Source of the DNA: an uncultured Dehalococcoidaceae bacterium | Lineage (GTDB): Bacteria; Chloroflexota; Dehalococcoidia; Dehalococcoidales; RBG-16-60-22 | Direction: 5' to 3' | NCBI GenBank assembly: GCA_964467135.1 | Contig: CAYXOZ010000005.1 | Span: 1 to 25,204 of the forward strand | Length of the DNA stretch: 25,204 nucleotides | Part shown: in pieces, positions 204 through 23,768 of the stretch | Layout of the letters: each line of letters opens with the position of its first letter | Position numbering within the stretch: position 1 is the first letter of the stretch | Notes under the pieces: generated by a model | What the model was told of the DNA's origin: nothing | Seen by the model: only the letters and a program-made list of their open reading frames with translations | Databases searched by the model: none | Translations under genes and position numbers: made by a program

Positions 204-1118
204 ATGTCGGGAATTTTCTGGCATATTTTCACTTTCAGCGCGATATTTGTTTTTCTGGTAATTCTATTTTATCGCCTTCTGGCTATCGTCAGGCAACCGG
301 TCCATTTACGATGGGAACTGGCGCCGATACCGCATGAAAAGGGGAAGGGAAAATACGGTGGTTCCTACCTAGAAGAATACGAATGGTGGCGGAAACCGAG
401 AAAACATTCACGCATCGCTCCTATATTATATATGCTCCAGGAGATATTTCTGATGAGGGGCATATGGAAAAATAATCGGGGTCTATGGCCCTTTTCGTCA
501 TTACTTCATGGCGGGATTTACCTTTTCATCGTAACGCTTGTACTGGATATAGTTAACGCTGTGTTTATTATTACCGGCGTCCCGACCCAAATCCTCAATG
601 TGTTTCAAAATATTGCCTCGGTTTTGGCCCTGGCGGGGTATCTGGCGGGCGGCCTGGGGGCGACATCACTTATCCTGAAACGCCGGCTGGACAGCAACTA
701 CAGGGCGTTCACCACACGCGCGATGTATTTCAGGCTCGCGTTCCTGGGGGCGATATTTATCAGCGGCATCTGGGCATGGGCCGCCAGTGCAGCCTTTGCC
801 TCCGAAACTAGCCAGTTCATAAAAAATCTCATAACGCTTGAGAGCGGTATCTCGGCGGGCGTGCCTCTGACAACACACATTATCATATCACTGCTATTTA
901 TCGTCTATCTGCCGTTCACAGACATGCTCCACTTTATGGCTAAATATTTCACCTATCACGCGGTACGCTGGAACGATAATCCGCTGGATGAAAAGATGAA
1001 TAAGAAACTCGAGAGACTGATTAACAAACCGGTAGGCTGGTCGGCGCCGCATGCGGGGCCGGGTAAAAGCTGGGCGGAGATTGCCTCCGGGAAAAAAGAC
1101 AATGCCGAAAAAGCTTAA
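204..1118 (+). CDS. dsrM: DsrM-like / NarI-family membrane b-type cytochrome subunit
   Basis: 304 aa with about 5-6 hydrophobic helices. His102 (LLHGGIY) and the His225/His243 pair spaced 18 residues apart match NarI H187/H205. Lies directly upstream of, and overlaps, the dsrK-like gene. Confidence 0.75.
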   Translation: MSGIFWHIFTFSAIFVFLVILFYRLLAIVRQPVHLRWELAPIPHEKGKGKYGGSYLEEYEWWRKPRKHSRIAPILYMLQEIFLMRGIWKNNRGLWPFSSLLHGGIYLFIVTLVLDIVNAVFIITGVPTQILNVFQNIASVLALAGYLAGGLGATSLILKRRLDSNYRAFTTRAMYFRLAFLGAIFISGIWAWAASAAFASETSQFIKNLITLESGISAGVPLTTHIIISLLFIVYLPFTDMLHFMAKYFTYHAVRWNDNPLDEKMNKKLERLINKPVGWSAPHAGPGKSWAEIASGKKDNAEKA

Positions 1119-2700
1119 ACTTACCGATATATCAAAAAACGGAGAAGACCAGCTCAGCGGGGTCGACCTCCAGGAGCTGATGCCGCTGCCGCCGCCTTAC
1201 GATAAAAGCGAGGAGTTCCCCCCGGTGAAGCCTCTCACTGACGACCAGCGGGAGAGGCTGGAAAGCAATCTCGATGGCTTCTCGGCGCTGGCTTTGCCCC
1301 GCCCCAAAAACCGCGAGGAGGAACAGAAATATATCGGGCAGTTCATCTCCGGGTTGAAAAAGCTCCTCAGCAAAGAGTCCAACTGGACGTTCTTACAGCC
1401 CCTTCTCCTTTCCCTGGACTACTGCGCGCGCTGCCAGACCTGCAACGAAGCCTGCCATGTCTACACGGCCAGCGGCCAGAACGACCTCTACCGTCCCACC
1501 TACCGTTCCGAGATATTCCGTCGGCTGGTCAATAAATACGTCAAACACCAGGGCTCCAGGTTCGACGGGAATGACATCGAGCTCAACTGGACGACTGTCG
1601 CCCGACTTTACGAGCTCGCCTACCGCTGCAACCTGTGCCGCCGCTGCGCGCAGGCATGTCCCATGAGCGTGGATAACGCGCTTATCACCCGCGAGATACG
1701 CAAGCTTTTCAGCCAGGAGCTCGGCTGGGCGCCCCGGGAGCTCCACGAAAAGGGCACGGTCTTGCAGCTGGAGGTGGGCTCCCCTACCGGCCTGAGGCCG
1801 GATGTCGTTAAAGACAATATGGCGTTCCTGGACGAGGATTTCAGCGAAGCCACGGGTAGGAAAATAAAGACGCCCTGGGACAAAAAAGGCGCCGACGTCC
1901 TCATCATCCACTCCGCCGGGGACATCCTCTCTTTCCCGGAGAGCGTGGTGGCTTTCGGGATATTATGTAATGCCGCTGGCATCGACTGGACGCTGTCGTC
2001 GGAAGCGCCCGGCTATGACGGCGTCAACTACGGCCTGTTCTACGACGATATCCAGCTCGCCCGGATTGCCACCCGGCACGCGCAAATCGCCCGCAAGCTC
2101 GGGGTGAAAAAGATAGTCATGGGAGAATGCGGGCACGAGCATAAAGCCCTGATGACCGTCGCCGACCGGCTGCTCATGGGCGACCTCAATATACCGCGGG
2201 AAAGCGCCATGACCTTCCTGGAGGACATCGTTTTTCGCGGTAAAATAAAGTTCGACCCGTCGAAAAACGCTTTCCCCGTAACGCTCCACGACCCCTGCAA
2301 CATCGTCAGGAACCTGGGAATAGTCGAACCGCAACGTAAGGTCCTGCGTTATCTCTGCCCAAAGTTCCGGGAGATGGAGCCTCACGGAGTGGACAACTAC
2401 TGCTGCGGGGGCGGGGGCGGCCTCAGCGTGATGAACAACGTTAACTTTACCGACTGGAAGGTAAACGTCGCCGGGAGGATGAAATTTAAGCAGGTACTGG
2501 AAGCCTTCGCCGATGCGCCCGGGCCGGAGGTAAAAAAATATATCTGCGCCCCCTGCCTCAACTGCAAGCTGCAGTTCCGTGACATCCTCGAGCACTACGG
2601 GGCAAAAGAAAGGTCCGGCATCATCGTCGGCGGACTGGCCGAGCTCATCGTTAACGCGATGGTGGATATTAAAAAGCCTTTCATCAACCTGGCAGATTAA
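1102..2700 (+). CDS. dsrK: DsrK-like Fe-S oxidoreductase (HdrD/CCG family)
   Basis: Two CxxCxxCxxxC motifs (CARCQTCNEAC 1423-1455; CNLCRRCAQACP from 1627), plus GECGH, HDPCN, YCCGGGGG and CAPCLNCKLQF of the CCG domain. ATG 1102 (MPKKLKL, 17-nt overlap with the dsrM end) is preferred over the ORF-track start at 1051. Confidence 0.85.
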   Translation: MPKKLKLTDISKNGEDQLSGVDLQELMPLPPPYDKSEEFPPVKPLTDDQRERLESNLDGFSALALPRPKNREEEQKYIGQFISGLKKLLSKESNWTFLQPLLLSLDYCARCQTCNEACHVYTASGQNDLYRPTYRSEIFRRLVNKYVKHQGSRFDGNDIELNWTTVARLYELAYRCNLCRRCAQACPMSVDNALITREIRKLFSQELGWAPRELHEKGTVLQLEVGSPTGLRPDVVKDNMAFLDEDFSEATGRKIKTPWDKKGADVLIIHSAGDILSFPESVVAFGILCNAAGIDWTLSSEAPGYDGVNYGLFYDDIQLARIATRHAQIARKLGVKKIVMGECGHEHKALMTVADRLLMGDLNIPRESAMTFLEDIVFRGKIKFDPSKNAFPVTLHDPCNIVRNLGIVEPQRKVLRYLCPKFREMEPHGVDNYCCGGGGGLSVMNNVNFTDWKVNVAGRMKFKQVLEAFADAPGPEVKKYICAPCLNCKLQFRDILEHYGAKERSGIIVGGLAELIVNAMVDIKKPFINLAD

Positions 2701-2747
2701 TGTATACTGGGGGAGCTAAAGTATTACAATCAGGAAGGGTGAAGCCA

Positions 2748-3065
2748 ATGGCAAAAATGGAACTGGCCGGCAACACGTATGAAGTAGACGAGCATGGCTT
2801 TCTACAGGAGACCGCTAAATGGACCGAGGCAATCGCCCGGGCCTACGCCGTTAAAGAAAACGTCAACGAGCTCACGCCGGACCATTGGACGGCTATCAAT
2901 TACCTGAGGACTTACTACCTCCAGAATGGCATCTGCCCGATGATACGCCGGCTCGTTAAGGAGACCGGCTTTTCCCTGAAAAAACTTTACGACCTCTTCC
3001 CCAACGGGCCGGCCCAGTCCGCCTGTAAATGGGCGGGCGTACCCAAGCCGACAGGCTGCGTGTAG
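2748..3065 (+). CDS. dsrC: DsrC (TusE/DsrC/DsvC family) sulfur-carrier protein with both C-terminal cysteines
   Basis: 105 aa from ATG 2748 (purine-rich GGAAGGGTGA upstream). Motifs VDEHGFL, W..A, HW..INYLR.YY and LFP.GPA..AC..AG.PKPTGCV; Cys93-X10-Cys104. Confidence 0.9.
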   Translation: MAKMELAGNTYEVDEHGFLQETAKWTEAIARAYAVKENVNELTPDHWTAINYLRTYYLQNGICPMIRRLVKETGFSLKKLYDLFPNGPAQSACKWAGVPKPTGCV

Positions 3066-4419: not shown

Positions 4420-4485
4420 CTGTGACTATCTTGTAACAGGCGTGCGACTTTTTGTGATTTGGATGTAACCGGGCGGAGTTAAAGT
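4420..4485 (+). promoter_or_regulatory. Promoter module 1: two 7-4-7 direct-repeat boxes plus -10
   Basis: CTGTGAC-TATC-TTGTAAC (4420-4437), TTGTGAT-TTGG-ATGTAAC (4452-4469), 10 nt, TAAAGT (4480-4485). The same geometry recurs at 16085-16150. Confidence 0.65.
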
Positions 4486-4595
4486 ATTGCCAGTTATTTC
4501 GTCAATTTGGTAAACCGTGTGAACAACGTAAGCAGCTTTAAAAACGCTGACGGTGTCTAACCGGCCCGGCATACCGGTTTCAAAGGAGGCGCAAC

Positions 4596-4814
4596 TTGCG
4601 AACAACCTTAGAAAAAACTTACCCGGAATATCTCACCACCGGTGTCGTGGCCAGGCACTGCGGCGTCAGTAAAGTGACCGTCCTGCGGTGGATTGAAAGG
4701 GGGAACCTGACGGCTTTCCGACTGCCCGGAGGGCAGAACCGGATACACCGGGACGACTTCTTCGCTTTCGCCGTCAGACACAGTATACCCATCAAGAAAA
4801 ACGATGACCAGTAA
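4596..4814 (+). CDS. Stand-alone excisionase/BldC-like (HTH_17, MerR-type) DNA-binding protein
   Basis: TTG start 6 nt after GGAGG; LTTGVVARHCGVSKVTVLRWIERGNLTAFRLPGGQNRI is a typical Xis/BldC-like winged HTH; 72 aa. Confidence 0.85.
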   Translation: MRTTLEKTYPEYLTTGVVARHCGVSKVTVLRWIERGNLTAFRLPGGQNRIHRDDFFAFAVRHSIPIKKNDDQ

Positions 4815-4904: not shown

Positions 4905-7900
4905 ATGTCCAGGTTCGAAAAGTCAACCATGTCACTCATCTTCCGCTATCTCCGCATCCTGATTGCCGCCGTCTTTCTCATCGGCTTTTTGCCCGCGCCG
5001 GCGCTGGCCGAGGGCACGCCGCCGGCAAATATCACCGACCTCGCGGCCGGCAGCCCCACGCACAACAGTATCGCCCTCAACTGGACGGCCCCCACCGATG
5101 ACGGACTGGCCACCCAGTATGAAATCCGGTACGCGACCACCGTTATCGGCAACGAAAACGCCTGGAACAGCGCCCAACCGGCGCAGAACGTTCCGCCGCC
5201 GCATACCGCCGGCACTCCGGAGAGCTTCGTTGTACCCAACCTCAGCGCCAATACCACCTATTTCTTCGCCGTCAAGACCCGGGACGATGAGGACCTTCTT
5301 TCCGGCCTGTCCAACTCCCCCTCCGCGACCACTTTATTATCGCCGACTTTCAGCATCACTCACAGCCAGAACCGCTATTCATTCATGCTCGCGGCGGGAG
5401 CCAATATTACCGAGACCTTCAACGTAACGTCATTGAATAATTTCACTGGGACCATCAACCTGGGTTTCGGCGGACCGCCGGAAATAGCCAATAACTCCTC
5501 GGTCACGCCCAACCAGGTCACCCTGTCACCCGGTCAAACGCAGGCAGTCGCCCTGAACATACGCGCCGGCGCCATGGCGCCTTCAGGTTCTTACCAGTGC
5601 GGACTCAACGGCAATGCCCCGGGCCAGCAGAAAAGCGCCTTTTTCACGGTCATCATCGGCGTGCCCGGGCAGCCGCTTTTATCAGCATCGCCGCCGGTGG
5701 TCGGTCCCGGAGGCCAGAGCAATATCTTCGCCGCGCAGTTCCCCGGCGCCGCTGACATCACCCTCAAATGGGACTCCGGCCCGAACGCCGGGCAGACCAT
5801 CACTTCGGGACAGACAACCGCGGAAGGGACCTGGAATACTTTATTGAGTATTCCGCCTCAGGTGCCCGGGGGAATCTTTATCCTGAAAGCGATTTCCGGC
5901 CAAGCCTCCGCCACCTGCCAGATAACGATTACCTCTGGCGCCGGCCCCGATTACCTTCTTTCCGCCTCCCCCCAGTTCGTTTCCATCACGCCCGGCCACT
6001 CCGCCAACGTCACTATTTACGTCCAATCTATTAGCGGCTTCAACAGCACCGTAACGCTTAATGCGGGCACCGCCCCCGGTGTGACCAGGAGTTTCTCGCC
6101 CACTAGCGTCACGCCCGCCAGCGGTGACACAGCATCCGCTATCCTGACCATCTCTGTAGCGGACTGGGCTTCCCCCAGCATGTACCAGTTGAACATCGAA
6201 GGGACCTGCGCCAGCCCGCCCATAAATAAGTTTACCAATATCAACCTGGACATCCAGCCGCAGGCGAACTGGGGCCCGGGTATCTCGCTATCGCAGTCCT
6301 ACGCCCGGGCCGGCGACATGATTACCGTCTCCGGCGCCAATTTCCCGCCGGCTACCCAGGGACAGGTGGTAACGATAAAAGAGGTATTTTCCAACACCAC
6401 GCTGCCGACCAACCCCGCCAGTATCACCGTCAACGGCGGCAGCTTTACCGGGACTTTCACCATCCCGTCCGGGATACCTTCCGGCAACTACCGCATTAAA
6501 GCCATCGTTCAGAGCACCGGCGACTTCGCCGAGAGGGACTTCCAGATTCTGGGGACCAGCGAGACCTTCACCCTGGGGGTATCACCGCAGTCGATGAGCG
6601 TGATGACGGAGCAGGACCACAACACGGCCATCGTTTCGGTGAATATCTTTTCCGTGGGCGGCAGCAGCGCTACCGTCAACCTGGCGCTGGAAGGCGTGCC
6701 GGGCTGGCTCACGTACCGGTTCGGCGCCCTGGCGGACAATACCCCGGCTACTGACGCCAATGCTGTATCCGTGCCCGCTGGCGGGTCAACCTCCGTTGAC
6801 CTTCAGCTTACCGCCAGCTTAACAGCGCCGACCGGCTCCTATCCGGTCACGATCAAAGGCTGGATAACGGCCAGCCCGGAACAGCGCGTCTCGTTACAGC
6901 TCATGATACAGCCGCCGTCCGGATTCGGTATGGCGGAGTTCACCCTCAGTCCCACCTTCGGGGAGAGCGGCCGGACGGTCACTTTCTCTGGCTCCGGCTT
7001 CACCGACTGCACGCCGAATGAAGTCAGGGCTCTTAATTTCGGCGGCATCGATATACTCGCCACCCAGAGCCTCCCCACCATCACCGTGCCTGCCTCCGGG
7101 GAGTCCGCGGGCAGGTTCTCCGGCACTTTCCGCGTGCCGGCGGCGCTAGCGCCGGGCACGTATCCGGTAGACATCAGAGTGGGCGATTCGCCCAGTAAAT
7201 TCATCGGCAAATCCTTCACGATAACCGGAGGCAGCGATACCTTCGTGCTACAGGCATCGCCGAGCTTCCTCTTTGTGCCTCAGGGCGGCCATATCACCAC
7301 CATGATACAGGTACAGGCCACCGGCTCCACGTCACCCACGGTTGCCCTGTCGCTGGAGGGATACCCGGCCAACGATATCGGCAGTCTCCTCAATCCCAAC
7401 AGCGTTACCGCGCCGCCAGGCGGCGTTGCCACCTCCGAGCTGACTCTGACCGCGCAGCCCTGGTTGCCGGCGGGCCATTACACGATTACCGTTAAGGGTA
7501 TCAGCGGCGCCGAGGTGCACCGTATCCCGCTGGAAATGGACGTGGCGCCGCCGGCCGGCATGAATATGGCTTCGATTTATCTCAGCCCGACGTCCGGGTA
7601 CGCTAGCACCTGGGTCACCATCAGCGGCAGCGGTTTCCAGGCGAACTCGAGCGTTACCCACCTCTATCTCGGACCGCCGACTGTCGACAACGACTGGGCG
7701 GGGCGCCTGCCGCCTATTGTGACCAACGAATCGGGGGCGTTTACCGCCGTTTTACAGATTCCATCAGTTCTGCCATCCGGCATGTACATGATTGAAGCGG
7801 TGACGGGCAACCCGCCCAACGACCGGAGGGCATCCGCCCAGTTTACCGTCTTCGGCAACGGGGCAAGTTTTAGCTTTAACCTATCTCCTAATATGATACA

Positions 7901-10900
7901 GGCACCGCCCGGTGCAACAGTAACGACATCCGTTAACGTGCAGTCGGTGGGGGCGTCCTCGTCCAACGTGACCCTCCGCGTCGAAGGCCCCCCGATAATC
8001 GAATGGCGTTTTGACGGCGGGGAGTGGGGAGCGCCTAAAACCGTCTCCCCGCCCATCGGCGCTTCCCTGGTATCCTCGCTGGAAATCCGGCCCAAGCCGG
8101 TGGCTCCCATGGGGCACTACTCGCTCGCGGTCAAAGCCGCCGCTGGCCAGCAAACAGAGATGCGTAACCTCGAGCTGGACATTGGCGCTTCCGCCGGATT
8201 TGACATGCCGATATTCTCGCTTAATCCCAATTCAGGTACGGCGGGCACTAACGTGTCCTTCAGCGGCTCGAACTTCCCGCCGGAAGCTAATATCACGGGA
8301 CTAACCTTCGGTGGGGCTAACATCACCCTCGGGCAAACGATTACCACCTCGGCGCAGCGCGCCTTTTCTGGCTCCTTCACCGTTCCCGCTACGCTGGGCG
8401 GTCAAGCCATCTCCCCGGGAACGTATGGCGTCAGGGTATACGTAGGCCAGGTTCAGGCGGAGACGCAGTTCTACGTTTACGGCGCCGATGATACCTTTAT
8501 GCTATCCTTATCTCCCAGTTATTTACAGGGCAGTCCCGGCATCCAGGTGCGTACATCCGGCCTGCTTAAAGCTTTAGCCGGCGCCGCCCCGACCGTTAAG
8601 ATGACGGTCAAGGGTCTGCCGCCTGGCGTGGAAACCGCCTGGAACGAAATCGTTCAACCCGTCTTTACCCTCGCCACACCGCCGGGAGGACAGAACAACT
8701 TCCAGCTGGGGCTGGTATTGCCCAACATGATACCGATGGGCATGTACCCGGCCGTCCTCGAAGGCTGGGTGGATACTAATGCGAACAACGTCTGGGACGC
8801 TAACGAAAAAATCAGTCGCGTCAATCTTGAGCTTTCGATTATGCCGCCCCAGGGCTATAACATGGGCATGCTTTCGCTCAATCCCAGCTTCGGCAGGGTG
8901 GGCGATACCATCACCTTCAGCGGCTCCGGGTTCGCCCGGAACACCGCGATTACCAGTTTGACCTTCGCCGGTAATAACATACTCATGGCGGATATCACTA
9001 CCTCCGATGACGACTCCGGCTCGTTCTCCGGGGTCTTCACCGTGCCCACCATGGGACCCGGCCGTTATCCGGTCGACGTCGTGGTAGGCGACCGCCGGGG
9101 CGGCTTTGAGTTCCAGATAGTCTCCGGCGACCAGAAGTTCAGCGTCAACGCCTCGCCGGGCTGGCTGGCGCGGCCGGCGGGAAATACCGGCAACGTCAAT
9201 ATCCAGGTAAGGTCTCTCGTCGCCACTCCGCCCAGTCCCTCCGTGGTCCTGCGGATAGAAGGACTGCCGATGGGTGTCACGCCGAGCTTCACTACCGCCA
9301 ACGTGACCCCGCCCGTCGGCGCGATGGAAAGTCGTGACCTTCAACTGACGATATCGAGCGGCTGCCCGATGGGCAACTATCCGATATCCGTCCGCGCCTA
9401 TAACGCCGCCAATCCCTCCGAGGAAATCTGGACGAACTTTACCCTCGAGGTAACGCCCTCCGCCGGTTTCATGGATATGGGCATGGCGATGGTCACCATA
9501 TCGCCCACTTTCGGTTCTGCCGGCGACCAGATAACGGTCAGCGGCTACGGCTTCCCCAAGAGCCAGAGCCTGACCTCCATACGACTCGGCCCGCAGAACA
9601 TCACCCCCGGCGTGGCTACTACCACCGATGACACCGGCGCTTTTTCCGCGGTAATTACCGTGCCATCCCTGCCTTCCGGGATGCACCCGCTGGAAGTCAA
9701 CGTACAGAACACCATCAGGAATCTGCCTTTCAATATCATGGGAGCGAGCGACACGTTCTCGCTGGAAGTCAGCCCCAACTGGCTGCAGCCTATACCTGCC
9801 GGCGACCCCAACGGACGCCAGATTGCCATCAGCGTTAACGCGCTACCCGGCAAGACGACCGCCGTCACTCTGAGGACGGAAGGGCTCTTCGCGGCTTACG
9901 GCACCATCACCGAGGTCTGGAACCCGACCTCGAAGTCGGTCAGCATTACCGATACGGGCGGCGCCGCCACGGCTACTCTGATACTAATCGCCTCGGAAAA
10001 CCTGCCGCCCGGCCCCTACCCCTTTAATATCGTGGCTATCGACGGCAGCAATAACCGGCGCGATTTCCATATGGAGTTCATGGTAGGCCCGCCGGCCGGC
10101 TTCATGAACAACGACTGGATGCAGCAGCAGGGCGTCTTCTTCCCGGAGATATTCCTATCACCCAAGAGCGGGTCGGTCGGCACGCAGGTGACGTTCACCG
10201 GCACTAACCTGCCCGCGGGCGCCAGCATTACCGCTATTAACTTCGCCGGTAACACGGTGCCGCTCCCCGCCGGCGGCCTCACGGCGGATGACACCGGCAG
10301 CCTTTCCGGCTCGTTCATCGTCAGCGAGGCCTGGAACCTGCCCGCCGGCGGCATGTACTGGGTGGACTTCCGACTGCAAAAGGACACCTGGTGGCAGAAC
10401 ATCGGCAAGGACTTTAACCTGATGCGGGCGGACGCCGCCTTCAGCCTGGAAGCCACGCCCAACTTTATACCGCCGATACAACCGGGGGGCAACGGGCAGA
10501 CAAAAATCAACGTTAAAGCCCTCGGCTATAACAGCGCCAACGTCTCGCTGGCGGTCATGGAGAGCCTGAACGGGTGGGGTATCCCGGGCGGGGTGCAGTT
10601 ACACTGGAACGCCGTCGACGGACCCGCCACGACCATCGCTAACGTCCCGGGCGGCGGCCAGACGGCGAAAGACTTTTACCTGGTCGCTTCCAACCCCGGC
10701 CATTACATGATAAACATCGTGGGCTGGATTGACAGCAACGCCAACCAGCTCCTCGAAAAGAACATACCTTCGGAAGCGCAATCCGAGTTCGGCATACCTT
10801 TGAACTTCGACGTCGCGCCGCCCGAGGGATTCCAGAACTGGAACATGGACACGATGATGGACCAGATGGACATGTCCAGTGACGATAAATACCTCTTTTA

Positions 10901-13900
10901 TTTCCCGGAGATTGTCCTGAACCCCGGTATGGGGCAGGCGGACACTAAAGTGAATATCAATGCCTCTGACTTCCCCGCTAACGCCGTGGTAACAAGCCTC
11001 CGCTTCGCCGGAACTAATCTACCCGTTCCCGCCGGCACCGCCGCGGACAGCAACGGGGACTTTTCGCTTGTCTTTAACGTCCCCAAGACCATGTGGAGCG
11101 CCAATATCACCGCCGGCTGGTACGACGTCGAGTTGGCGGCCGCCAAAGCCGGCGAGCCGGAAGTGCGCATCAGGAAGCCCTTCCAGGTGACCGATGCCAA
11201 CGTCGCCTTCACCCTCTGGGCCGAGCCCAACTGGCTGCCGCCGATTCCTCCCGGCGGCAGCGGCTCGGCGCTCATCCGCGTGAAGTCAATGGGCGTGGCC
11301 GCCAACGTAACGCTCTCGATGGATAAAATCCCGCCGGGTGTCACCACTACCTTCTCCGACGCGACGCTTGAGCTTAGCCCGGGCGGCTCGGAGAGCGCGA
11401 CCCTTACCCTGTCCCCGACGAACATCCCGCCGGGGCATTACGGCGCGGAAATCCGGGGCGCCGCTACCATCGGCGGGACCCCCAAGACCTTCTATACGCA
11501 TATCGAGTTCGAGGTGCAGCCGTCCACGATGTTTAAAGACACCGACTGGATGCAGCAGCAGGGTATCTGGTTCCCGGAAATAACCCTTAACCCCACCGCG
11601 GGACCGGTCAAGACCAAGGTAACGGTAAAAGCCACCGACTTCCCCGCCGGCGCTAACATCACCAACCTGCGTTTCGCCGGCAGGGAGCTCCCCATACCGG
11701 TTGGCACCGCCGCCAATAACGACGGCGACGCCGACCTTATCTTCAACGTGCCCGACGGCTACGGGGTCGGCCAGTACATGGTCGAAGTGGTCGCCACATC
11801 CGGCGCGCAGCCGGTGTTCATCGCCAAGCCCTTCTTCATCGAGGATGCCAACGTCACCTTCAAGCTCAACGTCGTGCCGGGCTTCATCGCCGGCGTGACG
11901 CAGGGCAGCTCGGGCAATACGACCATCTTTATTGAGTCGACCGGCCAGGCCCTGACCGTGCAGCTATACGTGGACGGGCTGCCGCCGGGCGTTATCGGAC
12001 TGTTTGAAAGCCAGAGCGTCAACGTGCCGCCGGGCGGCTCGAGCAACACCCGGCTGACCATCACCACCCGCGCTTCGACCGGTCCGGGCATGTACCCCCT
12101 GACCATACGGGGCGTCAGCGGCAGCTCTACCAGGACAGTACCTTTCGGCTTCGGCGTCATGCCGCCGGCCAGCTTCAACATGCCCAAGTTCACCCTCGAC
12201 CCCGACTACGCCCCCGCCGGCTACGACAATAAACAGTACAAGATAGCCTTCTCCGGGACCGGGTTCCCGGCCAGCCAGAGCGTCAGCAGTATCACCTTCG
12301 GCGCGCAGTCGGTTGCTATTCCGGCTAACCTGGCTACCGACGCCAACGGCAATTTCAGCGGCGTCTTCCAGATGCCCATCGGTCTGACCCCCGGCACCTA
12401 CGACGTCCGCATCGCCGTCGCCGACGGCCACGGAGGTTTTATCTATGACGCGCGGCCGTTCTCCATCAGGGGCTCTCAATCTAAATTCATGCTCAAAGCA
12501 TCGCCGCCTTACCTGCCGCCGGTGCTCCAGGGCGGACAGGGCACGACCATGATCACCGCCCAGTCCGTGGGCACTGTCGCGGCTAACGTTACCCTCTCCG
12601 TCGATGGTTTAGCGCCGGGTATCACGGCTGTCTTTACGCCGGGCAGCACTGTGACCGTTACCCCCGGCACCTCCAGCAGCGCCACGCTGACTCTTAACGT
12701 CAGCGCCAGCACGCCGCCCGGTCCTTATCCCCTGAGCATACGCGGCATCAGCGGCAGTGAAATGATAGTGATACCGCTCGGCTTCAGCGTCATGTCCAAT
12801 ATCGGCGGCGGAGGCGGTTACGCCTCCATTACCATCAATCCGCCTCAGGCCAGGCCCGGCGAGCATATCGGCGTATCCGGCGCCGGCTTTACCAGCGGCG
12901 CCACTATCACCCTGACGGCGGCGCCACCCGGCGCGGCCACCCCGATTAACATCACACCCGGGACGATACAGGTACTGAGCGACGGCACCTGGGCCACGGA
13001 AATCACCGTGCCTCCGGCCGCGCAGGTACCGCCCGGCTCTTATATCATTAAAGCCAGCGACGGCACCCTTGCCGCCAGGTGCCCGTTCAACATCGTCCCG
13101 GCCACCGGCGCCGACTTCTTCCTTACCGTCTCGCCGCAGTCCATCCAGGTGGTCAGGGGCCAGAACGCTAACACCACCATCAAGTTGACCTCCAAGAACG
13201 GGTTCAACCAGGTTATCCAGTTCAGCGTTGGTTTCCTGGCTCCCGGCGTCACCGCTACTTTCCGGGACGCCGCCGGTAATATCATCGGCCAGTACCAGGG
13301 CTCCCCGGGCGGCGTTCGGCAGACCATCGCGCCGGTAGCCCTGACCCCGGTGCCCGGTGAAGAACTGGTGGTCATCACCAACATCGCCGTGGATATAGCG
13401 ACACCGTTAGGTCCTTACGATATTCCGCTCGAGGTCAAGACCAGCACTATCGCCCGGGCAGTGCCGTTAGGTCTCATGGTAGTTTCCACCGGCGCCAACT
13501 TGAACCTATCGCCTTCAAGCGGGCCGGCGGACACCAATATCAGTCTCTCCGGTTCGGGCTTTACCGCCGGTGAGACCATCACCGCAAAATTCGCCGGCAA
13601 TAATATCACCACGGTGCCCGGCACCGTCACAGCGGGGCAGGACGGCACCTTTACCGCCGTTATCAGCGCTCCGGCGATGAACCCCGGTATCTACGCGGTC
13701 AGAGTCACCGGAGGCACCAGCGGCATCGTTATCGATAGACCGTTTAGTCTACAGCCATCCGCGGTTGATTCTTTCATCCTCTATACCAATCCGATGAAAG
13801 TCGATATCCCCAGGGGCGGCTCCGGCACGGCTATCATCAAGATTGAGCCGCTGGGCGGCTTACAGTCCTCGGTCGTCCTCAGCGTCACCGGGCTCAACGC

Positions 13901-15920
13901 CGTCAGCGGCGCCACCTCCACCATCCTGCCGGCGTCAACGATAACACCGAGTATCGCCACGCCGACCACCGCCACGCTGACCATCAACGTCCCGGCGGGC
14001 GCCACGGCGGGGAGATACCCGCTGACCGTCACTGCCACCAATGGCGCCATCACCCAGACGCGGAGCATCACCCTTAATATAGTGCCCCCGGCTAATACGC
14101 CTGATTTCGCTATCAGCCTTGCCCCCAATACCATCCCTATCAATCCAAGTTCGAGCGCCAACACCACGGTAACGGTAACCGCCTTTAACGGCTTCAGCGG
14201 CACCGTCGCCCTGGCCGTGGCCATGGCCGATGCGAGCGCCTTGCCGGCCAGCATCACCTATACCGCGGGGTCGGTAACGGCTTCCGCCAACACCGGTCTG
14301 GGCAAACAGACGGTCGTCTTTAATGCGAACGCCAGCGCCCTGCCGGGCACCTGGACATTCAGGATAACCGGCACCAGCGGCGCCCTGACCCACAGCACGG
14401 ACGTCATGGTCATCTCGACACCCTCCGGGACAACGGTGACCACCTACGCCTCGCCGCTCCTCGACCCGAGCACCGTTACCTCGAGCACGCCGATTGATAT
14501 GACGGCCCCCTGGGGCGACGTCATCACCATCAACGGCATCATCAACGACGGCGGCGAAGCTGGTACCATTACCCCGTCTAACATCGATGTGCTGCCGGAT
14601 ACCCTGGCCGATCTTCCGGAAGGCGCCACCGACATGCTGGGCAGGGTAACCAATATCGATTCCAGCGTTCCCGTCGACGGGGTGGACTGGGACATCGGCT
14701 TCCCGTTTGACCCCGCCGACCTTGAGGCCGCCGGCCTCGCGGAAGAAAACCTGAAGGTAGCCTACCTCGACCCCGATACGGGGGAGTGGACGGAGGTGAC
14801 CACCACCGTCGATACCGACGCTAATATGGCCTACGCCTCGCCGGAGCACTTCAGCTCCTGGACGCTGCTCGCCACGACCAACCCGCCCCCGTCCCGGGTC
14901 GTTAATACCGGCGGTGGCGGCGGAGGCGGCGGCGCGACCGGCGTCACCTCGGTGTCTACCTCCGTCACCGGCAGCGGCAAGTTCGTCGTCGAGGTCACGG
15001 CGGAGTCAGCCGACGGCAAAGTGGAGATAACCATACCGAAAGACACTGTCGGCAAGAACAGCGTGGGCCAACGCTTGAGCTTCATCTCCATCAAACCGCA
15101 GGCCAATGCCCCCGCTCCTCCCGCCGATGCCAAAATCATCGGACTCGTTTACGATATCGGCCCCGGCGGCTCTACCTTCAACCCGGCCATATACGTCAAG
15201 TTCGACTATCAGGAATCGTCTCTACCCGCCGGTATAGTCGAGGAGGACCTGGTGATAGCCACCTTCCAGGACGGAAAATGGGTTAACCTTGCGGGCGGTG
15301 TCGTCGACAAGGCGAAAAATACGATTACCGCACCGGTGAACCATTTCTCGTCATTCACCGTCATGGCGCCGACGGCCGTAGCCCGTTTCAGCATCACCGG
15401 CCTTAAAGTAGCGCCGTCCGTGAGCTCTCCCAACGACCCTGTTACCGTCATCGCCACCGTTGCCAATACCGGTGAGCTCTCCGGCGACTACGAGGTCATC
15501 CTGACCATAAACGAGAGCGTGGCAGTTACGGAAAAAATCACGCTGGCCGCCCATACCAGCCAGGATGTCGATTTTACCATCGCCCCGAATAAAGTCGGGA
15601 CCTATGCCATCGATGTCAACGGCATGACCGCCACGCTGACCGTCAGGGAAGAAACAGCCGGCGCGGACGAGGTGCCGTCCGCCGGGGGTGAAACACCCGG
15701 AGAAATGGCGCCTGCCCCGGCTGAGGAGCCGTCCGCCGCAGAAACATTGCCTCCCGGAGTACAAGAGGAACCCCAGGCAACGACGGTGCCCGCTCTCTCG
15801 GAGCCGGAAACCGGTGAGTTCCCGATGTTCATGATATGGATTATCATCGGCATCATCGCCTTGAGTGCCGGTATCGGCATATCCGTCCGGCGGATACGCT
15901 CCAGCAGCAAGAATTCCTGA
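4905..15920 (+). CDS. Giant (3671 aa) secreted, C-terminally membrane-anchored multi-Ig-domain surface protein (putative adhesin)
   Basis: AGGAGGT RBS; signal peptide ending PALA|EG; N-terminal FN3-like domain; about 28 repeated beta-sandwich units; two HFS-ending domains; a CARDB-like domain; a Pro/Glu/Ala/Thr-rich stalk; a hydrophobic helix (about 15822-15887) followed by RRIR. Confidence 0.9.
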   Translation: MSRFEKSTMSLIFRYLRILIAAVFLIGFLPAPALAEGTPPANITDLAAGSPTHNSIALNWTAPTDDGLATQYEIRYATTVIGNENAWNSAQPAQNVPPPHTAGTPESFVVPNLSANTTYFFAVKTRDDEDLLSGLSNSPSATTLLSPTFSITHSQNRYSFMLAAGANITETFNVTSLNNFTGTINLGFGGPPEIANNSSVTPNQVTLSPGQTQAVALNIRAGAMAPSGSYQCGLNGNAPGQQKSAFFTVIIGVPGQPLLSASPPVVGPGGQSNIFAAQFPGAADITLKWDSGPNAGQTITSGQTTAEGTWNTLLSIPPQVPGGIFILKAISGQASATCQITITSGAGPDYLLSASPQFVSITPGHSANVTIYVQSISGFNSTVTLNAGTAPGVTRSFSPTSVTPASGDTASAILTISVADWASPSMYQLNIEGTCASPPINKFTNINLDIQPQANWGPGISLSQSYARAGDMITVSGANFPPATQGQVVTIKEVFSNTTLPTNPASITVNGGSFTGTFTIPSGIPSGNYRIKAIVQSTGDFAERDFQILGTSETFTLGVSPQSMSVMTEQDHNTAIVSVNIFSVGGSSATVNLALEGVPGWLTYRFGALADNTPATDANAVSVPAGGSTSVDLQLTASLTAPTGSYPVTIKGWITASPEQRVSLQLMIQPPSGFGMAEFTLSPTFGESGRTVTFSGSGFTDCTPNEVRALNFGGIDILATQSLPTITVPASGESAGRFSGTFRVPAALAPGTYPVDIRVGDSPSKFIGKSFTITGGSDTFVLQASPSFLFVPQGGHITTMIQVQATGSTSPTVALSLEGYPANDIGSLLNPNSVTAPPGGVATSELTLTAQPWLPAGHYTITVKGISGAEVHRIPLEMDVAPPAGMNMASIYLSPTSGYASTWVTISGSGFQANSSVTHLYLGPPTVDNDWAGRLPPIVTNESGAFTAVLQIPSVLPSGMYMIEAVTGNPPNDRRASAQFTVFGNGASFSFNLSPNMIQAPPGATVTTSVNVQSVGASSSNVTLRVEGPPIIEWRFDGGEWGAPKTVSPPIGASLVSSLEIRPKPVAPMGHYSLAVKAAAGQQTEMRNLELDIGASAGFDMPIFSLNPNSGTAGTNVSFSGSNFPPEANITGLTFGGANITLGQTITTSAQRAFSGSFTVPATLGGQAISPGTYGVRVYVGQVQAETQFYVYGADDTFMLSLSPSYLQGSPGIQVRTSGLLKALAGAAPTVKMTVKGLPPGVETAWNEIVQPVFTLATPPGGQNNFQLGLVLPNMIPMGMYPAVLEGWVDTNANNVWDANEKISRVNLELSIMPPQGYNMGMLSLNPSFGRVGDTITFSGSGFARNTAITSLTFAGNNILMADITTSDDDSGSFSGVFTVPTMGPGRYPVDVVVGDRRGGFEFQIVSGDQKFSVNASPGWLARPAGNTGNVNIQVRSLVATPPSPSVVLRIEGLPMGVTPSFTTANVTPPVGAMESRDLQLTISSGCPMGNYPISVRAYNAANPSEEIWTNFTLEVTPSAGFMDMGMAMVTISPTFGSAGDQITVSGYGFPKSQSLTSIRLGPQNITPGVATTTDDTGAFSAVITVPSLPSGMHPLEVNVQNTIRNLPFNIMGASDTFSLEVSPNWLQPIPAGDPNGRQIAISVNALPGKTTAVTLRTEGLFAAYGTITEVWNPTSKSVSITDTGGAATATLILIASENLPPGPYPFNIVAIDGSNNRRDFHMEFMVGPPAGFMNNDWMQQQGVFFPEIFLSPKSGSVGTQVTFTGTNLPAGASITAINFAGNTVPLPAGGLTADDTGSLSGSFIVSEAWNLPAGGMYWVDFRLQKDTWWQNIGKDFNLMRADAAFSLEATPNFIPPIQPGGNGQTKINVKALGYNSANVSLAVMESLNGWGIPGGVQLHWNAVDGPATTIANVPGGGQTAKDFYLVASNPGHYMINIVGWIDSNANQLLEKNIPSEAQSEFGIPLNFDVAPPEGFQNWNMDTMMDQMDMSSDDKYLFYFPEIVLNPGMGQADTKVNINASDFPANAVVTSLRFAGTNLPVPAGTAADSNGDFSLVFNVPKTMWSANITAGWYDVELAAAKAGEPEVRIRKPFQVTDANVAFTLWAEPNWLPPIPPGGSGSALIRVKSMGVAANVTLSMDKIPPGVTTTFSDATLELSPGGSESATLTLSPTNIPPGHYGAEIRGAATIGGTPKTFYTHIEFEVQPSTMFKDTDWMQQQGIWFPEITLNPTAGPVKTKVTVKATDFPAGANITNLRFAGRELPIPVGTAANNDGDADLIFNVPDGYGVGQYMVEVVATSGAQPVFIAKPFFIEDANVTFKLNVVPGFIAGVTQGSSGNTTIFIESTGQALTVQLYVDGLPPGVIGLFESQSVNVPPGGSSNTRLTITTRASTGPGMYPLTIRGVSGSSTRTVPFGFGVMPPASFNMPKFTLDPDYAPAGYDNKQYKIAFSGTGFPASQSVSSITFGAQSVAIPANLATDANGNFSGVFQMPIGLTPGTYDVRIAVADGHGGFIYDARPFSIRGSQSKFMLKASPPYLPPVLQGGQGTTMITAQSVGTVAANVTLSVDGLAPGITAVFTPGSTVTVTPGTSSSATLTLNVSASTPPGPYPLSIRGISGSEMIVIPLGFSVMSNIGGGGGYASITINPPQARPGEHIGVSGAGFTSGATITLTAAPPGAATPINITPGTIQVLSDGTWATEITVPPAAQVPPGSYIIKASDGTLAARCPFNIVPATGADFFLTVSPQSIQVVRGQNANTTIKLTSKNGFNQVIQFSVGFLAPGVTATFRDAAGNIIGQYQGSPGGVRQTIAPVALTPVPGEELVVITNIAVDIATPLGPYDIPLEVKTSTIARAVPLGLMVVSTGANLNLSPSSGPADTNISLSGSGFTAGETITAKFAGNNITTVPGTVTAGQDGTFTAVISAPAMNPGIYAVRVTGGTSGIVIDRPFSLQPSAVDSFILYTNPMKVDIPRGGSGTAIIKIEPLGGLQSSVVLSVTGLNAVSGATSTILPASTITPSIATPTTATLTINVPAGATAGRYPLTVTATNGAITQTRSITLNIVPPANTPDFAISLAPNTIPINPSSSANTTVTVTAFNGFSGTVALAVAMADASALPASITYTAGSVTASANTGLGKQTVVFNANASALPGTWTFRITGTSGALTHSTDVMVISTPSGTTVTTYASPLLDPSTVTSSTPIDMTAPWGDVITINGIINDGGEAGTITPSNIDVLPDTLADLPEGATDMLGRVTNIDSSVPVDGVDWDIGFPFDPADLEAAGLAEENLKVAYLDPDTGEWTEVTTTVDTDANMAYASPEHFSSWTLLATTNPPPSRVVNTGGGGGGGGATGVTSVSTSVTGSGKFVVEVTAESADGKVEITIPKDTVGKNSVGQRLSFISIKPQANAPAPPADAKIIGLVYDIGPGGSTFNPAIYVKFDYQESSLPAGIVEEDLVIATFQDGKWVNLAGGVVDKAKNTITAPVNHFSSFTVMAPTAVARFSITGLKVAPSVSSPNDPVTVIATVANTGELSGDYEVILTINESVAVTEKITLAAHTSQDVDFTIAPNKVGTYAIDVNGMTATLTVREETAGADEVPSAGGETPGEMAPAPAEEPSAAETLPPGVQEEPQATTVPALSEPETGEFPMFMIWIIIGIIALSAGIGISVRRIRSSSKNS
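5346..14420 (+). repeat. Intragenic protein-level tandem array: (A-B)x13 followed by A-A
   Basis: A units read F.L..sP.....G......v.s......V.L.v.GlPpGv...L.l.......G.Yp..v.g. B units read i.LsP..G..G..vt.sGsgF......l.F.G......td..G.Fsg.f.vP....G.Y.v.v. Counted by eye; boundaries approximate. Confidence 0.75.
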
Positions 15921-16084: not shown

Positions 16085-16150
16085 TTGTGATATTCCTGTT
16101 AGGTTCTGCCAGCAGCCTGTGACAATATCGTGAGGCGATTTTTATATACT
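16085..16150 (+). promoter_or_regulatory. Promoter module 2: two 7-4-7 direct-repeat boxes plus -10
   Basis: TTGTGAT-ATTC-CTGTTAG (16085-16102), CTGTGAC-AATA-TCGTGAG (16117-16134), 10 nt, TATACT (16145-16150). Offsets (+32, +60) are identical to module 1. Confidence 0.65.
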
Positions 16151-16239
16151 TCAAACGTAGCAAACACCGCTAGCACCAGATATAACAATTCTTATTATTT
16201 ACTCACTGGCAGCCCGGTAACGCCGGTATGGAGGTAAGC

Positions 16240-16467
16240 TTGCCTAAAGCGCAGGAACAGTGGACCCCGGAGTTCATCTCCGTGGGCTTTATCGCCAAAC
16301 GCTGCGGCGTCAGCAATACCACCGTATTGCGCTGGATTAATACCCGCCAACTGCCGGCTTTTAAGCTTCCCGGCGGCCATTTCCGTATAGAGAGGACCGA
16401 ATTTTCCCGGTTCCTGGATAGACATCACATGCCGGTACGGGCCACGCGACTGGAAAAAACTCCGTAG
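16240..16467 (+). CDS. Second stand-alone excisionase/BldC-like HTH protein (paralogue of 4596-4814)
   Basis: ISVGFIAKRCGVSNTTVLRWINTRQLPAFKLPGGHFRI...FSRFLDRHHMP. TTG 16240 is preferred because GGAGG (16230-16234) lies 5 nt upstream; the in-frame ATG at 16228 lacks an RBS. Confidence 0.85.
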   Translation: MPKAQEQWTPEFISVGFIAKRCGVSNTTVLRWINTRQLPAFKLPGGHFRIERTEFSRFLDRHHMPVRATRLEKTP

Positions 16468-16580
16468 TGATTCTGAGACGATTAATATGCATATAGCCGA
16501 CAAAAACGGGCAAAAGGGATTAACACTATGTAACGGAACGGTCCGTGTTACTCAGGAATAAACACTACGGGAGGTAAGAA

Positions 16581-16967
16581 ATGCCAAAAGACATGGCCCA
16601 TAAAATACGTCGATTCCTCAGGAAAATCGACCGTAATGGCAAGGGTTTTACCCTGGTGGAACTGCTTATCGTCGTGGCTATCCTGGGCGTCCTGGCGGCG
16701 GTCGTCCTGCCTAACGTCACCGGTCTCGCCGGCGAAGGGCAGGAGGAAGCCGCCAAGGCCGAGCTGGTGACCGTGCAGACAGCCATGGACACGATGATGG
16801 CGAAAAGCCACATCACCTCGGTCACCGCCACCACCACCACTGACGATATGTCGGCTTTTCCGACAGGACGGCCGTTATATCCGGATTACCTGAGGACTGA
16901 CACCACCAAGGGCACTTATTCCTGTACCATCACCGGTCTGGTTACCCAGGTATCTAAAGGCTATTAG
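16581..16967 (+). CDS. Type IV pilin (PilA-like prepilin)
   Basis: GGAGGT RBS; basic 22-aa leader; class III cleavage site KG|FTLVELLIVVAILGVLAAVVLP with Glu at +5. Confidence 0.92.
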   Translation: MPKDMAHKIRRFLRKIDRNGKGFTLVELLIVVAILGVLAAVVLPNVTGLAGEGQEEAAKAELVTVQTAMDTMMAKSHITSVTATTTTDDMSAFPTGRPLYPDYLRTDTTKGTYSCTITGLVTQVSKGY

Positions 16968-19883: not shown

Positions 19884-19895
19884 AGGAGCACGACG

Positions 19896-20345
19896 ATGAT
19901 AGGAAGAGACGAAGTAATTCTGCTGGTGGAAGATAACCCGGATGACGTTGAGCTTACCATGAGGGCGTTCCAGAAAAATAACATCGCCAACGAGGTAGTC
20001 GTGGCCCGCGACGGGGTGGAAGCCCTGGACTATCTCTTCTGCCAGGGAGCTCACGTAAACCGGGATATCACTAAAACCCCGAGGCTTGTGCTCCTCGACT
20101 TAAAATTGCCGAAACTCGACGGCCTCCAGGTGCTGGAGCGCCTCCGCGCCGATGACCGCACCAAGCTCGTTCCCGTCGTTATCCTGACATCTTCGAGGGA
20201 GGAACAGGACCTCATCAGCGGCTACCGCTCCGGGGCAAACAGCTATGTGCGTAAACCGGTGGACTTTAATCAGTTTCTCAACGCCGTCCGCCAGATAGGA
20301 CTCTACTGGCTATTGATAAATGAATCGCCGGCTCAGCAATACTAA
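19896..20345 (+). CDS. Single-domain response regulator (Rcp1-like)
   Basis: ILLVEDNPDD, LLDLKLPKLDG, ILTSS and NSYVRKPVDF...YWL; no output domain; AGGAG RBS. Confidence 0.92.
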   Translation: MIGRDEVILLVEDNPDDVELTMRAFQKNNIANEVVVARDGVEALDYLFCQGAHVNRDITKTPRLVLLDLKLPKLDGLQVLERLRADDRTKLVPVVILTSSREEQDLISGYRSGANSYVRKPVDFNQFLNAVRQIGLYWLLINESPAQQY

Positions 20346-20393
20346 GGATGAAAAATACTCGCCTGCCTTCAATACTAGCTCATGGGCTGAATA

Positions 20394-23300: not shown

Positions 23301-23768
23301 ATCTCCCTCAAAGAGGAAATTCCCCGGGAGCTCCCGGAAATGGAAGTGGACAGTGAACGCCTGCGGCAGGTAATTATTAATTTGCTGAGCAACGCCATTA
23401 AATTCAGCGAACCCGGCGGCAGCGTTCTTGTCCGGGCGGAAAAACGCGAAGGAGAATTACTTTTCCAGGTTTCCGACCACGGTATGGGCATATCCCCGGA
23501 AGACCAGAAGCGCCTCTTCGAGAGGTTCTTCAGGGCGGAAGACAAAGCGGCGCAGGGCGGTACCGGACTGGGACTATATATCACCAAGCAGATTATCGAG
23601 GCGCACGGCGGGCGCATCTGGGTAGAAAGCAAAGTTAACGAAGGCAGCACCTTCAGTTTTAATCTGCCTTTTAACGGCAGAGGAGGCACCGGACATGACG
23701 AAAAAAATACTGGTCATCGAAGACGACCCGGCCATATCAAGACTGGTGGACTATTCCCTCAGGCATGA
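20394..23768 (+). CDS. Cytoplasmic hybrid kinase: REC - PAS(x6) - HisKA - HATPase
   Basis: N-terminal REC (LLIEDNPDD, LSDLGLPDS, YLVKG); six PAS/PAC units; ISHELRTPL, NLLSNAIKF, DHGMGI and GTGLGLYI; no TM segment. Confidence 0.92.
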   Translation: MENGNIKVLLIEDNPDDTELLLRKLGKSVNGQLAVTTVKTLHDALEYIRENKPDIILSDLGLPDSHGLDTVTKIMCEEPQIPLVVLSGFDDEATAIKAVQSGAQDYLVKGQLEGRQIERVLFYAIERARLQSELEQHTQEITKIQSNLLKILGKNADAIIVVGEKGRILFANPAAESLLDQKKKDLINESFSFPLNKGKKSEIIIKHRGRNDTVAEMNVVEINWEGKPAYLASLRDITERKQMEEAVRESEAKFSKAFHSSANLFAINKLEDGNFIEVNESFTRITGYSRKEAIGHNATDLNLWADEEEQARIVKKTRENEILRNEQIKIRHKSGEIRNGLFSSEQITVGGEPCFIHTITDITELKRAEEQLRVSEDKFSKAFRHSPEGIVISRVEDGTILEANDTFLRLTGYTHEEVIGKKSIELGLWANPEERGEILKILKDEGTVNNRECQFRMRSGEIRTWLFSAEIININNNPYMLSVTTDITERKKVEEKLRYSDTALNSIHEGVFATDNQFIISRWNEICEQMFGTKASEAIGKLVGDVIVMVEDYPKQNEKRFALLMTKGFNQEEQIYRTPKGNIWVDVHAQAIEENGKRFGWVTLVTDITPRKRAEEELRFSHAAFRSIHESVIATDTKYVITHWNDISEQMYGTKAAEAIGKKLMDVIEIEENLPGENERRLQRLESDGYYREEQLHRTRYGEVWVDVSVQAIEENGKRYGWIVLASAISQRKLAEEALKRSEEKYRELINTSTDGIVSTDAGMRVIIWNQGAEKIFGYKEKEMLGQSLLKIIPEREHTRTKKEQHSIKNTITEKTNRIIEGIGLRKDGKEIPIELSLSARENEGTFIATAIIRDVTERKEAEEKLRKIDQMKQEFLSNISHELRTPLQSIGGFTKLILTGQVPDPTVQQEFLQIIDRETSHIGNLINNLLDMSRLESGRFQVNKRLIPLRQTIIDSVKTFYSIARDKNISLKEEIPRELPEMEVDSERLRQVIINLLSNAIKFSEPGGSVLVRAEKREGELLFQVSDHGMGISPEDQKRLFERFFRAEDKAAQGGTGLGLYITKQIIEAHGGRIWVESKVNEGSTFSFNLPFNGRGGTGHDEKNTGHRRRPGHIKTGGLFPQA
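21882..22607 (+). repeat. Tandem PAS-domain duplication (363-nt period) within the hybrid kinase
   Basis: LRYSDTALNSIHE...QAIEENGKRFGW (from 21882) versus LRFSHAAFRSIHE...QAIEENGKRYGW (from 22245). Confidence 0.8.

Follow-up and report, generated by a model that had tools for sequence, protein, structure and literature searches.

A conserved two-box module upstream of HTH genes in Dehalococcoidales, a probable activator-dependent promoter with counterparts elsewhere in Chloroflexota

The sites of several OmpR-family response regulators are built from short direct repeats. The WalR site has the consensus TGTWAH-N5-TGTWAH and is called very similar to the PhoB consensus by its authors, the E. 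coli pho box reading CTGTCAT-N4-CTGTCAY (PMC4168254). MtrA recognises GTnACC-n5-GTnACn in Streptomyces and GTCACA(gcg) repeats in mycobacteria, and an MtrA site at -34 has been tied to activation (PMC13189361). RpaB sites are paired TTACA octamers, known as HLR1, whose effect depends on their position (PMC6525291). Repeats of a different period are used by BldC of Streptomyces, which binds arrays of two to four direct 9-bp repeats in a head-to-tail manner. CarH-type MerR domains bind 11-bp direct repeats.

The locus considered here carries two direct-repeat modules of comparable design. The window, that is, the whole stretch of 25,204 nucleotides that was analysed, comes from an uncultured Dehalococcoidaceae bacterium. 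Both modules lie on its + strand, each separated by a leader of about 80-110 nt from a gene for a small helix-turn-helix protein: HTH1 (4596-4814, + strand) follows module 1 and HTH2 (16228-16467, + strand) follows module 2. Module 1 is made up of a distal box CTGTGAC-TATC-TTGTAAC at 4420-4437 (half-sites TGTGAC at 4421-4426 and TGTAAC at 4432-4437), a proximal box TTGTGAT-TTGG-ATGTAAC at 4452-4469 (half-sites at 4453-4458 and 4464-4469), which stands in the place of a -35 element, and a -10 hexamer TAAAGT at 4480-4485, of the family consensus TA[A/T]A[G/C]T. The corresponding parts of module 2 are a distal box TTGTGAT-ATTC-CTGTTAG at 16085-16102, a proximal box CTGTGAC-AATA-TCGTGAG at 16117-16134 and a -10 hexamer TATACT at 16145-16150. 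The spacers are common to both modules, with 14 nt between the boxes and 10 nt from the proximal box to the -10. Each module contains four direct half-sites, TGTGAY, TGTNA, TGTGAY and TGTNA, at offsets 0, +11, +32 and +43, followed by the -10 at +59. The geometry given in an earlier note on this DNA, with boxes at 0 and +32 and the -10 at +60 when counted from the start of the first 7-mer, can be read directly and is the same in both modules. The pattern TGTGAY-N6-GTDA, which the same note held to be common to the four boxes, matches the + strand of the window at exactly those four places, with 0.19 matches expected; this count is post hoc, the pattern having been derived from the four boxes themselves. 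Global alignment gave no useful result for the two upstream regions, which had to be compared with the boxes as anchors. No -35/-10 pair was found on the gene (+) strand in a sigma-70 scan of both upstream regions, a result consistent with an activator-dependent promoter. From the position of the -10 hexamers, transcription is predicted to start near 4491-4493 for module 1 and near 16156-16158 for module 2.

Conservation of the modules was followed in 59 genomic loci (418 kb) collected by homology to the HTH1 protein alone. By position weight matrix (PWM), the module is kept in Dehalococcoidales upstream of 53 of the 58 HTH1 orthologues and of 23 of the 25 HTH2 orthologues; in both HTH2 exceptions, the HTH2 gene is placed directly behind HTH1. 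There are 58 occurrences of the box pair with its 32-bp spacing, two in the window and 56 in the 418 kb of loci. In those loci it never lies on the strand opposite to the genes, and it takes one of two positions, about 195 bp before HTH1 or about 150 bp before HTH2. Among 74 unique orthologous modules, the successive half-sites read TGTGAY, TGT[G/A/T]A, TGTGAY and TGT[G/T/A]A and the -10 reads TA[A/T]A[G/C]T, these elements alone being kept while spacers and flanks are free to vary. The half-site offsets 0, +11, +32 and +43 hold in both window modules and in the 74 orthologous ones, half-site position 4 is G in 71-73 of the 74, G2, T3 and A5 of the half-sites are invariant, and no conserved -35 was found in the orthologous modules. 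The motif is also highly specific: with the 75-column PWM the two window sites reach 48.2 and 49.9 bits and the rest of the window stays below 0 bits, against a maximum of 2.4 bits in 2.1 Mb of shuffled sequence. As far as sequence can tell, the modules are conserved elements and not chance resemblances. Two of the outcomes that the earlier note had named as refuting, a motif not conserved upstream of orthologues and PWM matches at background frequency, were looked for and not found. No module precedes the divergent HTH homologues (L048-L053), whose upstream sequences are of another kind.

Genes that do not encode HTH proteins are also found behind Dehalococcoidales modules, one type specifying an 80-aa protein and the other a secreted protein of 176 aa. 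The conserved secreted protein, of about 176 aa in the family, carries the motif GDLFYIDAT and the 80-aa protein the motif MILxWND...FQRHLEDM. These putatively module-driven genes (L182 8912-9445, L185 5896-6426, L127 and L057) usually lie directly after the regulator gene discussed below, and no Pfam family is recorded for either protein in the contig annotation.

The distribution of the module extends well beyond the HTH genes. When metagenome contigs were scanned for the box pair, at least 120 loci were obtained; the scan pattern was derived from the window, so that the half-site logos and the regulon sample obtained in this way are biased. Among the matches listed, 12 of 134 precede an HTH1 or HTH2 homologue. 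Removal of simple tandem repeats leaves 111 matches, and the sequence TAnnnT is found exactly at +59 in 86 of these non-repetitive matches, as against nine at most for any other offset (among the matches listed). The PhoB/OmpR-type layout that the earlier note had recognised in the window, with direct repeats of 11-bp period and a proximal 7-4-7 box ending 10 bp before the -10, is supported: no -35 is conserved in the 74 orthologous modules, and the distance from box to -10 is fixed in these and in 86 of the 111 metagenome matches listed. A -10 that is phase-locked to the proximal box, together with the lack of a conserved -35, points to activation from the -35 position and not to repression. 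Among the matches listed, the genes behind the modules include several encoding universal stress proteins (Usp), as well as genes for DoxX, Hsp20, CBS, Transgly_assoc, OsmC and DJ-1/PfpI proteins, dehydrogenases and small zinc-ribbon proteins. Also among the matches listed, those Usp homologues that bear an organism name are labelled Ktedonobacteraceae, and Ktedonobacteria-like contigs often carry several modules each. A control scan of viral contigs gave 16 matches, all of them iteron-like GTGAC arrays and none (0/16) with a -10 at +59; in these contigs (L189-L203) the GTGAC repeats are spaced about 10-11 bp apart and are unrelated to the promoter module. Judged by the genes that follow it, the architecture is a promoter class present in two Chloroflexota classes before unrelated genes and is not HTH-specific; the idea of an HTH-only element was rejected after the metagenome scan. 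Searches of the literature found no described Chloroflexota motif or regulon of such a kind. The double-box instance, its spread in Chloroflexota and the candidate regulator appear to be undescribed in the literature searched, the kind of element itself being well known.

The earlier note had remarked that no OmpR-type regulator is encoded in the window, and a search there for an OmpR-type DNA-binding domain likewise found none. Elsewhere, the OmpR-family genes near modules form one orthogroup, with 50-65% identity between its Ktedonobacteria-like and Dehalococcoidales members, compared to about 35% for one OmpR gene of the sample that does not belong with them. In seven loci (L163, L095, L083, L079, L116, L011 and L057), the regulator gene has a module 50-180 bp past its stop codon, and in L065 a degenerate one follows. 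Motif ascertainment was removed by regulator-only look-ups, in which places were found from the regulator protein alone: the module is present 100-180 bp past the stop in five of the six distinct places with enough downstream DNA (L180/181, L182/183, L185, L187 and L188) and absent downstream of the regulator gene in the sixth (L184). Among the 59 HTH-selected loci, the regulator gene is within 4 kb of HTH1 in six, and in L054/L055 it lies directly upstream of the module and HTH. On Ktedonobacteria-like contigs, a string of ADH, kinase and regulator genes is itself preceded by a module, an arrangement that suggests auto-regulation of the candidate regulator in these bacteria. With genomic adjacency as the basis, the modules are most likely switched on by a response regulator of WalR/MtrA/RpaB-like type.

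In Dehalococcoidales, the regulator gene is the last of a pilus cluster whose order is PilB, PilC, minor pilins, PilMN, PilT, PAS kinase and regulator. In L184, PilB is encoded about 7.4 kb before the regulator gene, and the part of PilB present in the window shares 83% identity with that PilB. By synteny only, the regulator gene of this genome should be located about 7-8 kb beyond the 3' end of the window. As for the regulator itself, it is a 232-aa protein in L011 and is encoded at 8001-8699 in L181. The Dehalococcoidales protein scores highest with the NCBIfam model of RpaB (236 bits, equivalog cut-off 330), the MtrA model giving 223-229 bits (cut-off 300) and the YycF model 213-235 bits (cut-off 340), and the best matches by sequence among solved structures are RegX3 and MtrA. 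By these profile scores the orthogroup is closest to RpaB/MtrA/WalR but is not a member of those equivalogs. Since it scores below every NCBIfam equivalog cut-off, specificity is not transferable to it from WalR, MtrA or RpaB. In a Dehalococcoidia relative (L185 2881-4587), the gene just upstream of the regulator encodes a histidine kinase with an N-terminal HTH_17-like segment followed by PAS/GAF/HisKA domains. In a Dehalococcoides network paper, expression links join a DNA-binding response regulator to a twitching-motility gene, and an excisionase-family protein to a response regulator.

HTH1 is a 72-aa stand-alone MerR-like winged helix (Pfam HTH_17) with a TTG start and a ribosome-binding site AAGGAGG at 4583-4589. 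HTH2 is its paralogue (48% identity, Pfam HTH_17). The true start of HTH2 is probably the in-frame TTG at 16240, giving 75 aa, since GGAGG (16230-16234) lies 5 nt upstream of it and the resulting protein matches the N-termini of homologues (MP...); the listed ATG start at 16228 overlaps this GGAGG. Sequence matches to the HTH1 profile are found in the DNA-binding domains of a LitR/CarH-like protein, of RacA and of BldC. In the AlphaFold model (pLDDT 84.7), HTH1 is a stand-alone winged helix without a coiled coil or effector domain, and its best PDB matches are the BldC structures 6amk and 6ama (target-normalised TM-score 0.8-0.9, about 35% identity). The NCBIfam HTH_BldC model gives HTH1 33.6 bits against a cut-off of 77 and does not match HTH2. 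Some HTH1 homologues of 70-77 aa (P0010, P0011, P0023, P0057 and P0087) bear the JGI name "two-component system response regulator VicR", apparently an annotation artefact, as these proteins have neither a receiver nor a Trans_reg_C domain.

The leader of module 1 contains a repeat system of its own. Just downstream of the -10, four direct GTNAA repeats (4501-4532, + strand, with GT at 4501, 4510, 4519 and 4528) follow each other with a period of exactly 9 bp. Arrays of at least three GTNAA repeats at 9 bp occur 29 times in 2.35 Mb, where 0.2 are expected, and all lie in module 1 leaders. By analogy, this array is a candidate operator for the BldC-like HTH1. The conserved leader of module 2, CAAAnnTAnCAAnCACnGCtAnCacC (16152-16178, + strand), is unlike that of module 1, and may likewise have a 9-bp period. 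No conserved leader was found for Ktedonobacteria-type modules among the matches listed. It is possible, at somewhat less than even odds, that each HTH protein feeds back on its own leader, the upstream boxes common to both modules being the sites of the response regulator. No relevant match was obtained when the whole window was searched against Rfam, and RNAalifold found no conserved RNA structure in the module 1 leader (-0.5 kcal/mol, 0 compensatory pairs); a structured RNA leader or riboswitch was rejected on these results.

Genes for cell-surface proteins follow the two HTH genes. A giant surface protein of 3671 aa is encoded at 4905-15920 (+ strand), 90 bp after HTH1, and has a signal peptide, numerous Ig-like repeats (with fn3, TIG, MG2 and CARDB matches), a Gly-rich linker and a C-terminal membrane anchor. 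Its gene is probably co-transcribed with HTH1 from module 1. In some relatives, 4602-aa versions of this protein begin 70-90 bp after HTH1; in others the giant protein is missing and HTH2 comes directly after HTH1. The gene that follows HTH2 in relatives is always that of the type IV pilin, which in the window lies at 16581-16967 (+ strand) and has an N_methyl motif. The interval from HTH2 to the pilin gene contains the imperfect inverted repeat GTAACGGAACGGTCCGTGTTAC (16530-16551), a possible stem-loop of the pilin 5' region. The order after HTH2 continues from the pilin with two histidine kinases, two receiver-only proteins and the start of PilB, the assembly ATPase, whose 5' part (24090-25204, + strand, start approximate) runs off the window. 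The two kinases are large and PAS-rich (941 and 1124 aa, in the interval 17058-24096); they have near-repeated PAS modules in common, the second has an N-terminal receiver, and the 1124-aa ORF shares its last 74 nt with a 133-aa receiver ORF. Upstream of the modules, at 204-3065, are genes for DsrM-like (Nitrate_red_gam), DsrK-like (Fer4/CCG) and DsrC proteins, followed by a 179-aa ORF without a Pfam match and an MBL-fold hydrolase, a block that is syntenic in the closest relatives.

The reading that we prefer, with a probability of about 0.65, takes together the architecture of the module, its conservation and specificity, and the genomic association of the regulator with it: the module would be an activator-dependent promoter with a -10 alone, bound by the OmpR/PhoB-family regulator of this Chloroflexota-wide orthogroup. 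Each module would thus be a sigma-70-type promoter, and two OmpR/PhoB-family dimers would bind its two tandem boxes head-to-tail, with TGTGAY as the strong half-site of each box and TGTNA, 11 bp downstream, as the weaker one. With boxes 32 bp apart, the four half-sites would all face the same side of the helix. The proximal dimer, at about -39 to -23 and so in the place of the -35, would recruit RNA polymerase as PhoB does, and the distal dimer, at about -71 to -55, would contribute cooperativity. In Dehalococcoidales, we infer that binding of the regulator, whose gene ends the type IV pilus cluster and comes after that of a PAS histidine kinase, would activate transcription of HTH1 and the giant surface protein from module 1 and of HTH2 and the pilin from module 2. 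The BldC-like HTH proteins would then be products of the module promoters and not binders of the boxes; HTH1 may instead bind the 9-bp-period GTNAA array in its own leader.

The earlier note had left the choice between a remote activator and the HTH protein itself. The second possibility, that the boxes are bound by the HTH_17 (BldC-like) proteins encoded downstream and that the modules are auto-regulatory sites, would explain why Dehalococcoidales modules are mainly found before the two HTH paralogues, and it agrees with the BldC-like fold of HTH1, with the head-to-tail binding of direct repeats by BldC and with the match of CarH-type MerR domains to the HTH1 profile. However, on Ktedonobacteria-like contigs the module precedes about 70 unrelated genes, and tblastn found no HTH_17 homologue in these contigs (both among the matches listed); even in Dehalococcoidales some modules precede the non-HTH genes for the 80-aa and the secreted 176-aa proteins. 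Moreover, the repeat unit of BldC is 9 bp and not 11 bp, a separate 9-bp array being present in the leader; the half-site agrees with OmpR-family consensus sites; and the recognition helices of HTH1 (SKVTV) and HTH2 (SNTTV) differ, whereas the boxes are identical. We consider binding of the boxes by the downstream-encoded proteins quite improbable. An HTH_17 protein encoded elsewhere may be conceived of as the binder, as both BldC-like and CarH-like MerR domains bind direct repeats. Of the two possibilities in the earlier note, it is the remote activator that is favoured, because the same module occurs before many genes with no HTH_17 gene nearby and because one OmpR-family orthogroup is repeatedly encoded next to modules.

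An activator of this orthogroup has in turn to be weighed against another direct-repeat binder (an OmpR paralogue, a SARP-like or a winged-helix protein) and against the idea that the boxes are mainly repressor sites occluding the promoter. The candidate binder is identified by gene neighbourhood, Chloroflexota have many OmpR paralogues (L138 and L047, for example), and RpaB-type regulators repress or activate depending on position (PMC6525291). Yet the adjacency is found in one orthogroup only, non-orthologous OmpR genes in the sample being without it, and a -10 phase-locked to the proximal box with no conserved -35 indicates activation rather than occlusion; such a different binder or repressive role seems unlikely. 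There is far less room for the view that the likeness of the two modules is a by-product of the HTH1/HTH2 duplication, a chance effect or an RNA element. HTH1 and HTH2 are indeed paralogues, so that their upstream regions share ancestry, but at 48% protein identity the upstream DNA keeps the half-sites and -10 only, with different spacers and flanks, and the module also stands before unrelated genes. An RNA element finds no Rfam match and no conserved structure in the leader, and the boxes lie upstream of the predicted transcription start. These explanations are largely refuted, and we give them next to no weight.

Transcriptional regulation in Dehalococcoidia and Ktedonobacteria is nearly unexplored, and the organisms are mostly uncultured. 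A highly specific motif with essentially no background, together with a named candidate regulator, would make a regulon readable from genomes and metagenomes. This regulon would tie the type IV pilus to the giant surface protein and, in soil relatives, would take in dozens of stress genes. The results also suggest a Chloroflexota counterpart to the master envelope regulators WalR, MtrA and RpaB. A wider reading, which we regard as speculative and rather doubtful, is that of an undescribed Chloroflexota two-component system, sister to WalRK/MtrAB/RpaB, with a rigid double-box promoter, class-specific regulons and a two-tier BldC-like circuit. Under such a reading, the system would control a large general-stress regulon in Ktedonobacteria and the cell surface (giant surface protein, type IV pilin and secreted protein) in Dehalococcoidales. 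In the latter, the regulator would turn on two BldC-like mini-regulators, each the first gene of a surface-protein transcript, and each of these might feed back on its own leader via the 9-bp repeat arrays.

Among known systems, the module resembles OmpR-family sites and is identical to none of them. The pho-box likeness proposed in the earlier note stands for the layout and is weaker for the sequence, the half-sites TGTGAY/TGTNA being closer to those of WalR and MtrA than to TGTCA. As in the E. coli pho box, a 7-4-7 direct repeat ends 10 bp before the -10 and replaces the -35, and tandem boxes would accommodate head-to-tail dimers, which are predicted here. In contrast, the half-site is TGTGA where the pho box has TGTCA, the boxes are 32 bp apart and not 22 bp, and the candidate regulator is closer to RpaB/MtrA/WalR than to PhoB. 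No link of the module to phosphate was found among the downstream genes listed, which are HTH, surface, pilin and stress genes. An E. coli-type Pho regulon was accordingly rejected on the G at position 4 and on these targets. A CRP/FNR site (TGTGA-N6-TCACA) was also rejected: the partner half-site is a direct TGTNA and no TCACA is conserved.

For the leader, the closest parallel is BldC. HTH1 is modelled as a small stand-alone MerR-like winged helix with BldC as its best structural match, and the four repeats of the HTH1 leader keep a period of exactly 9 bp. Unlike the BldC repeat AATT-N4-C, the leader repeat is GTNAA-N4, and HTH1 stays below the BldC cut-off in NCBIfam. For the boxes, RpaB provides the top NCBIfam model for the regulator, although the score is under the cut-off of that model. 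HLR1 is a direct-repeat pair whose reverse complement contains TGTAA; it differs in its period of 10 bp (8+2) and in an activating position centred near -51.

MtrA of Actinobacteria offers a further comparison. Box 1 of the window, GTGACt-n5-GTAACa, agrees with the Streptomyces consensus wherever the latter is conserved, TGTGAC and GTCACA are reverse complements of each other, and MtrA and RegX3 are the best solved-structure matches to the regulator. MtrA sites are, however, usually single pairs and loosely conserved, and the regulator belongs to another phylum and falls short of the MtrA cut-off. The module also differs from the boxes of WalR (YycF/VicR) of Firmicutes: position 4 of the strong half-site is G here (TGTGAY) and A or T in WalR, two boxes are set at a fixed 32-bp offset with a phase-locked -10, and the regulator is below the YycF cut-off. 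Set against TGTWAH-N5-TGTWAH, the window sites agree in spacing, TGTAAC and TGTTAG fit or nearly fit, and TGTGAY breaks the W at position 4. In both systems, nevertheless, hexamer direct repeats with a 5-bp gap (11-bp period) and a TGTnA core are associated with an OmpR-family regulator, the candidate here scoring high on the YycF model, and cell-surface genes are the likely targets here, as they are for WalR.
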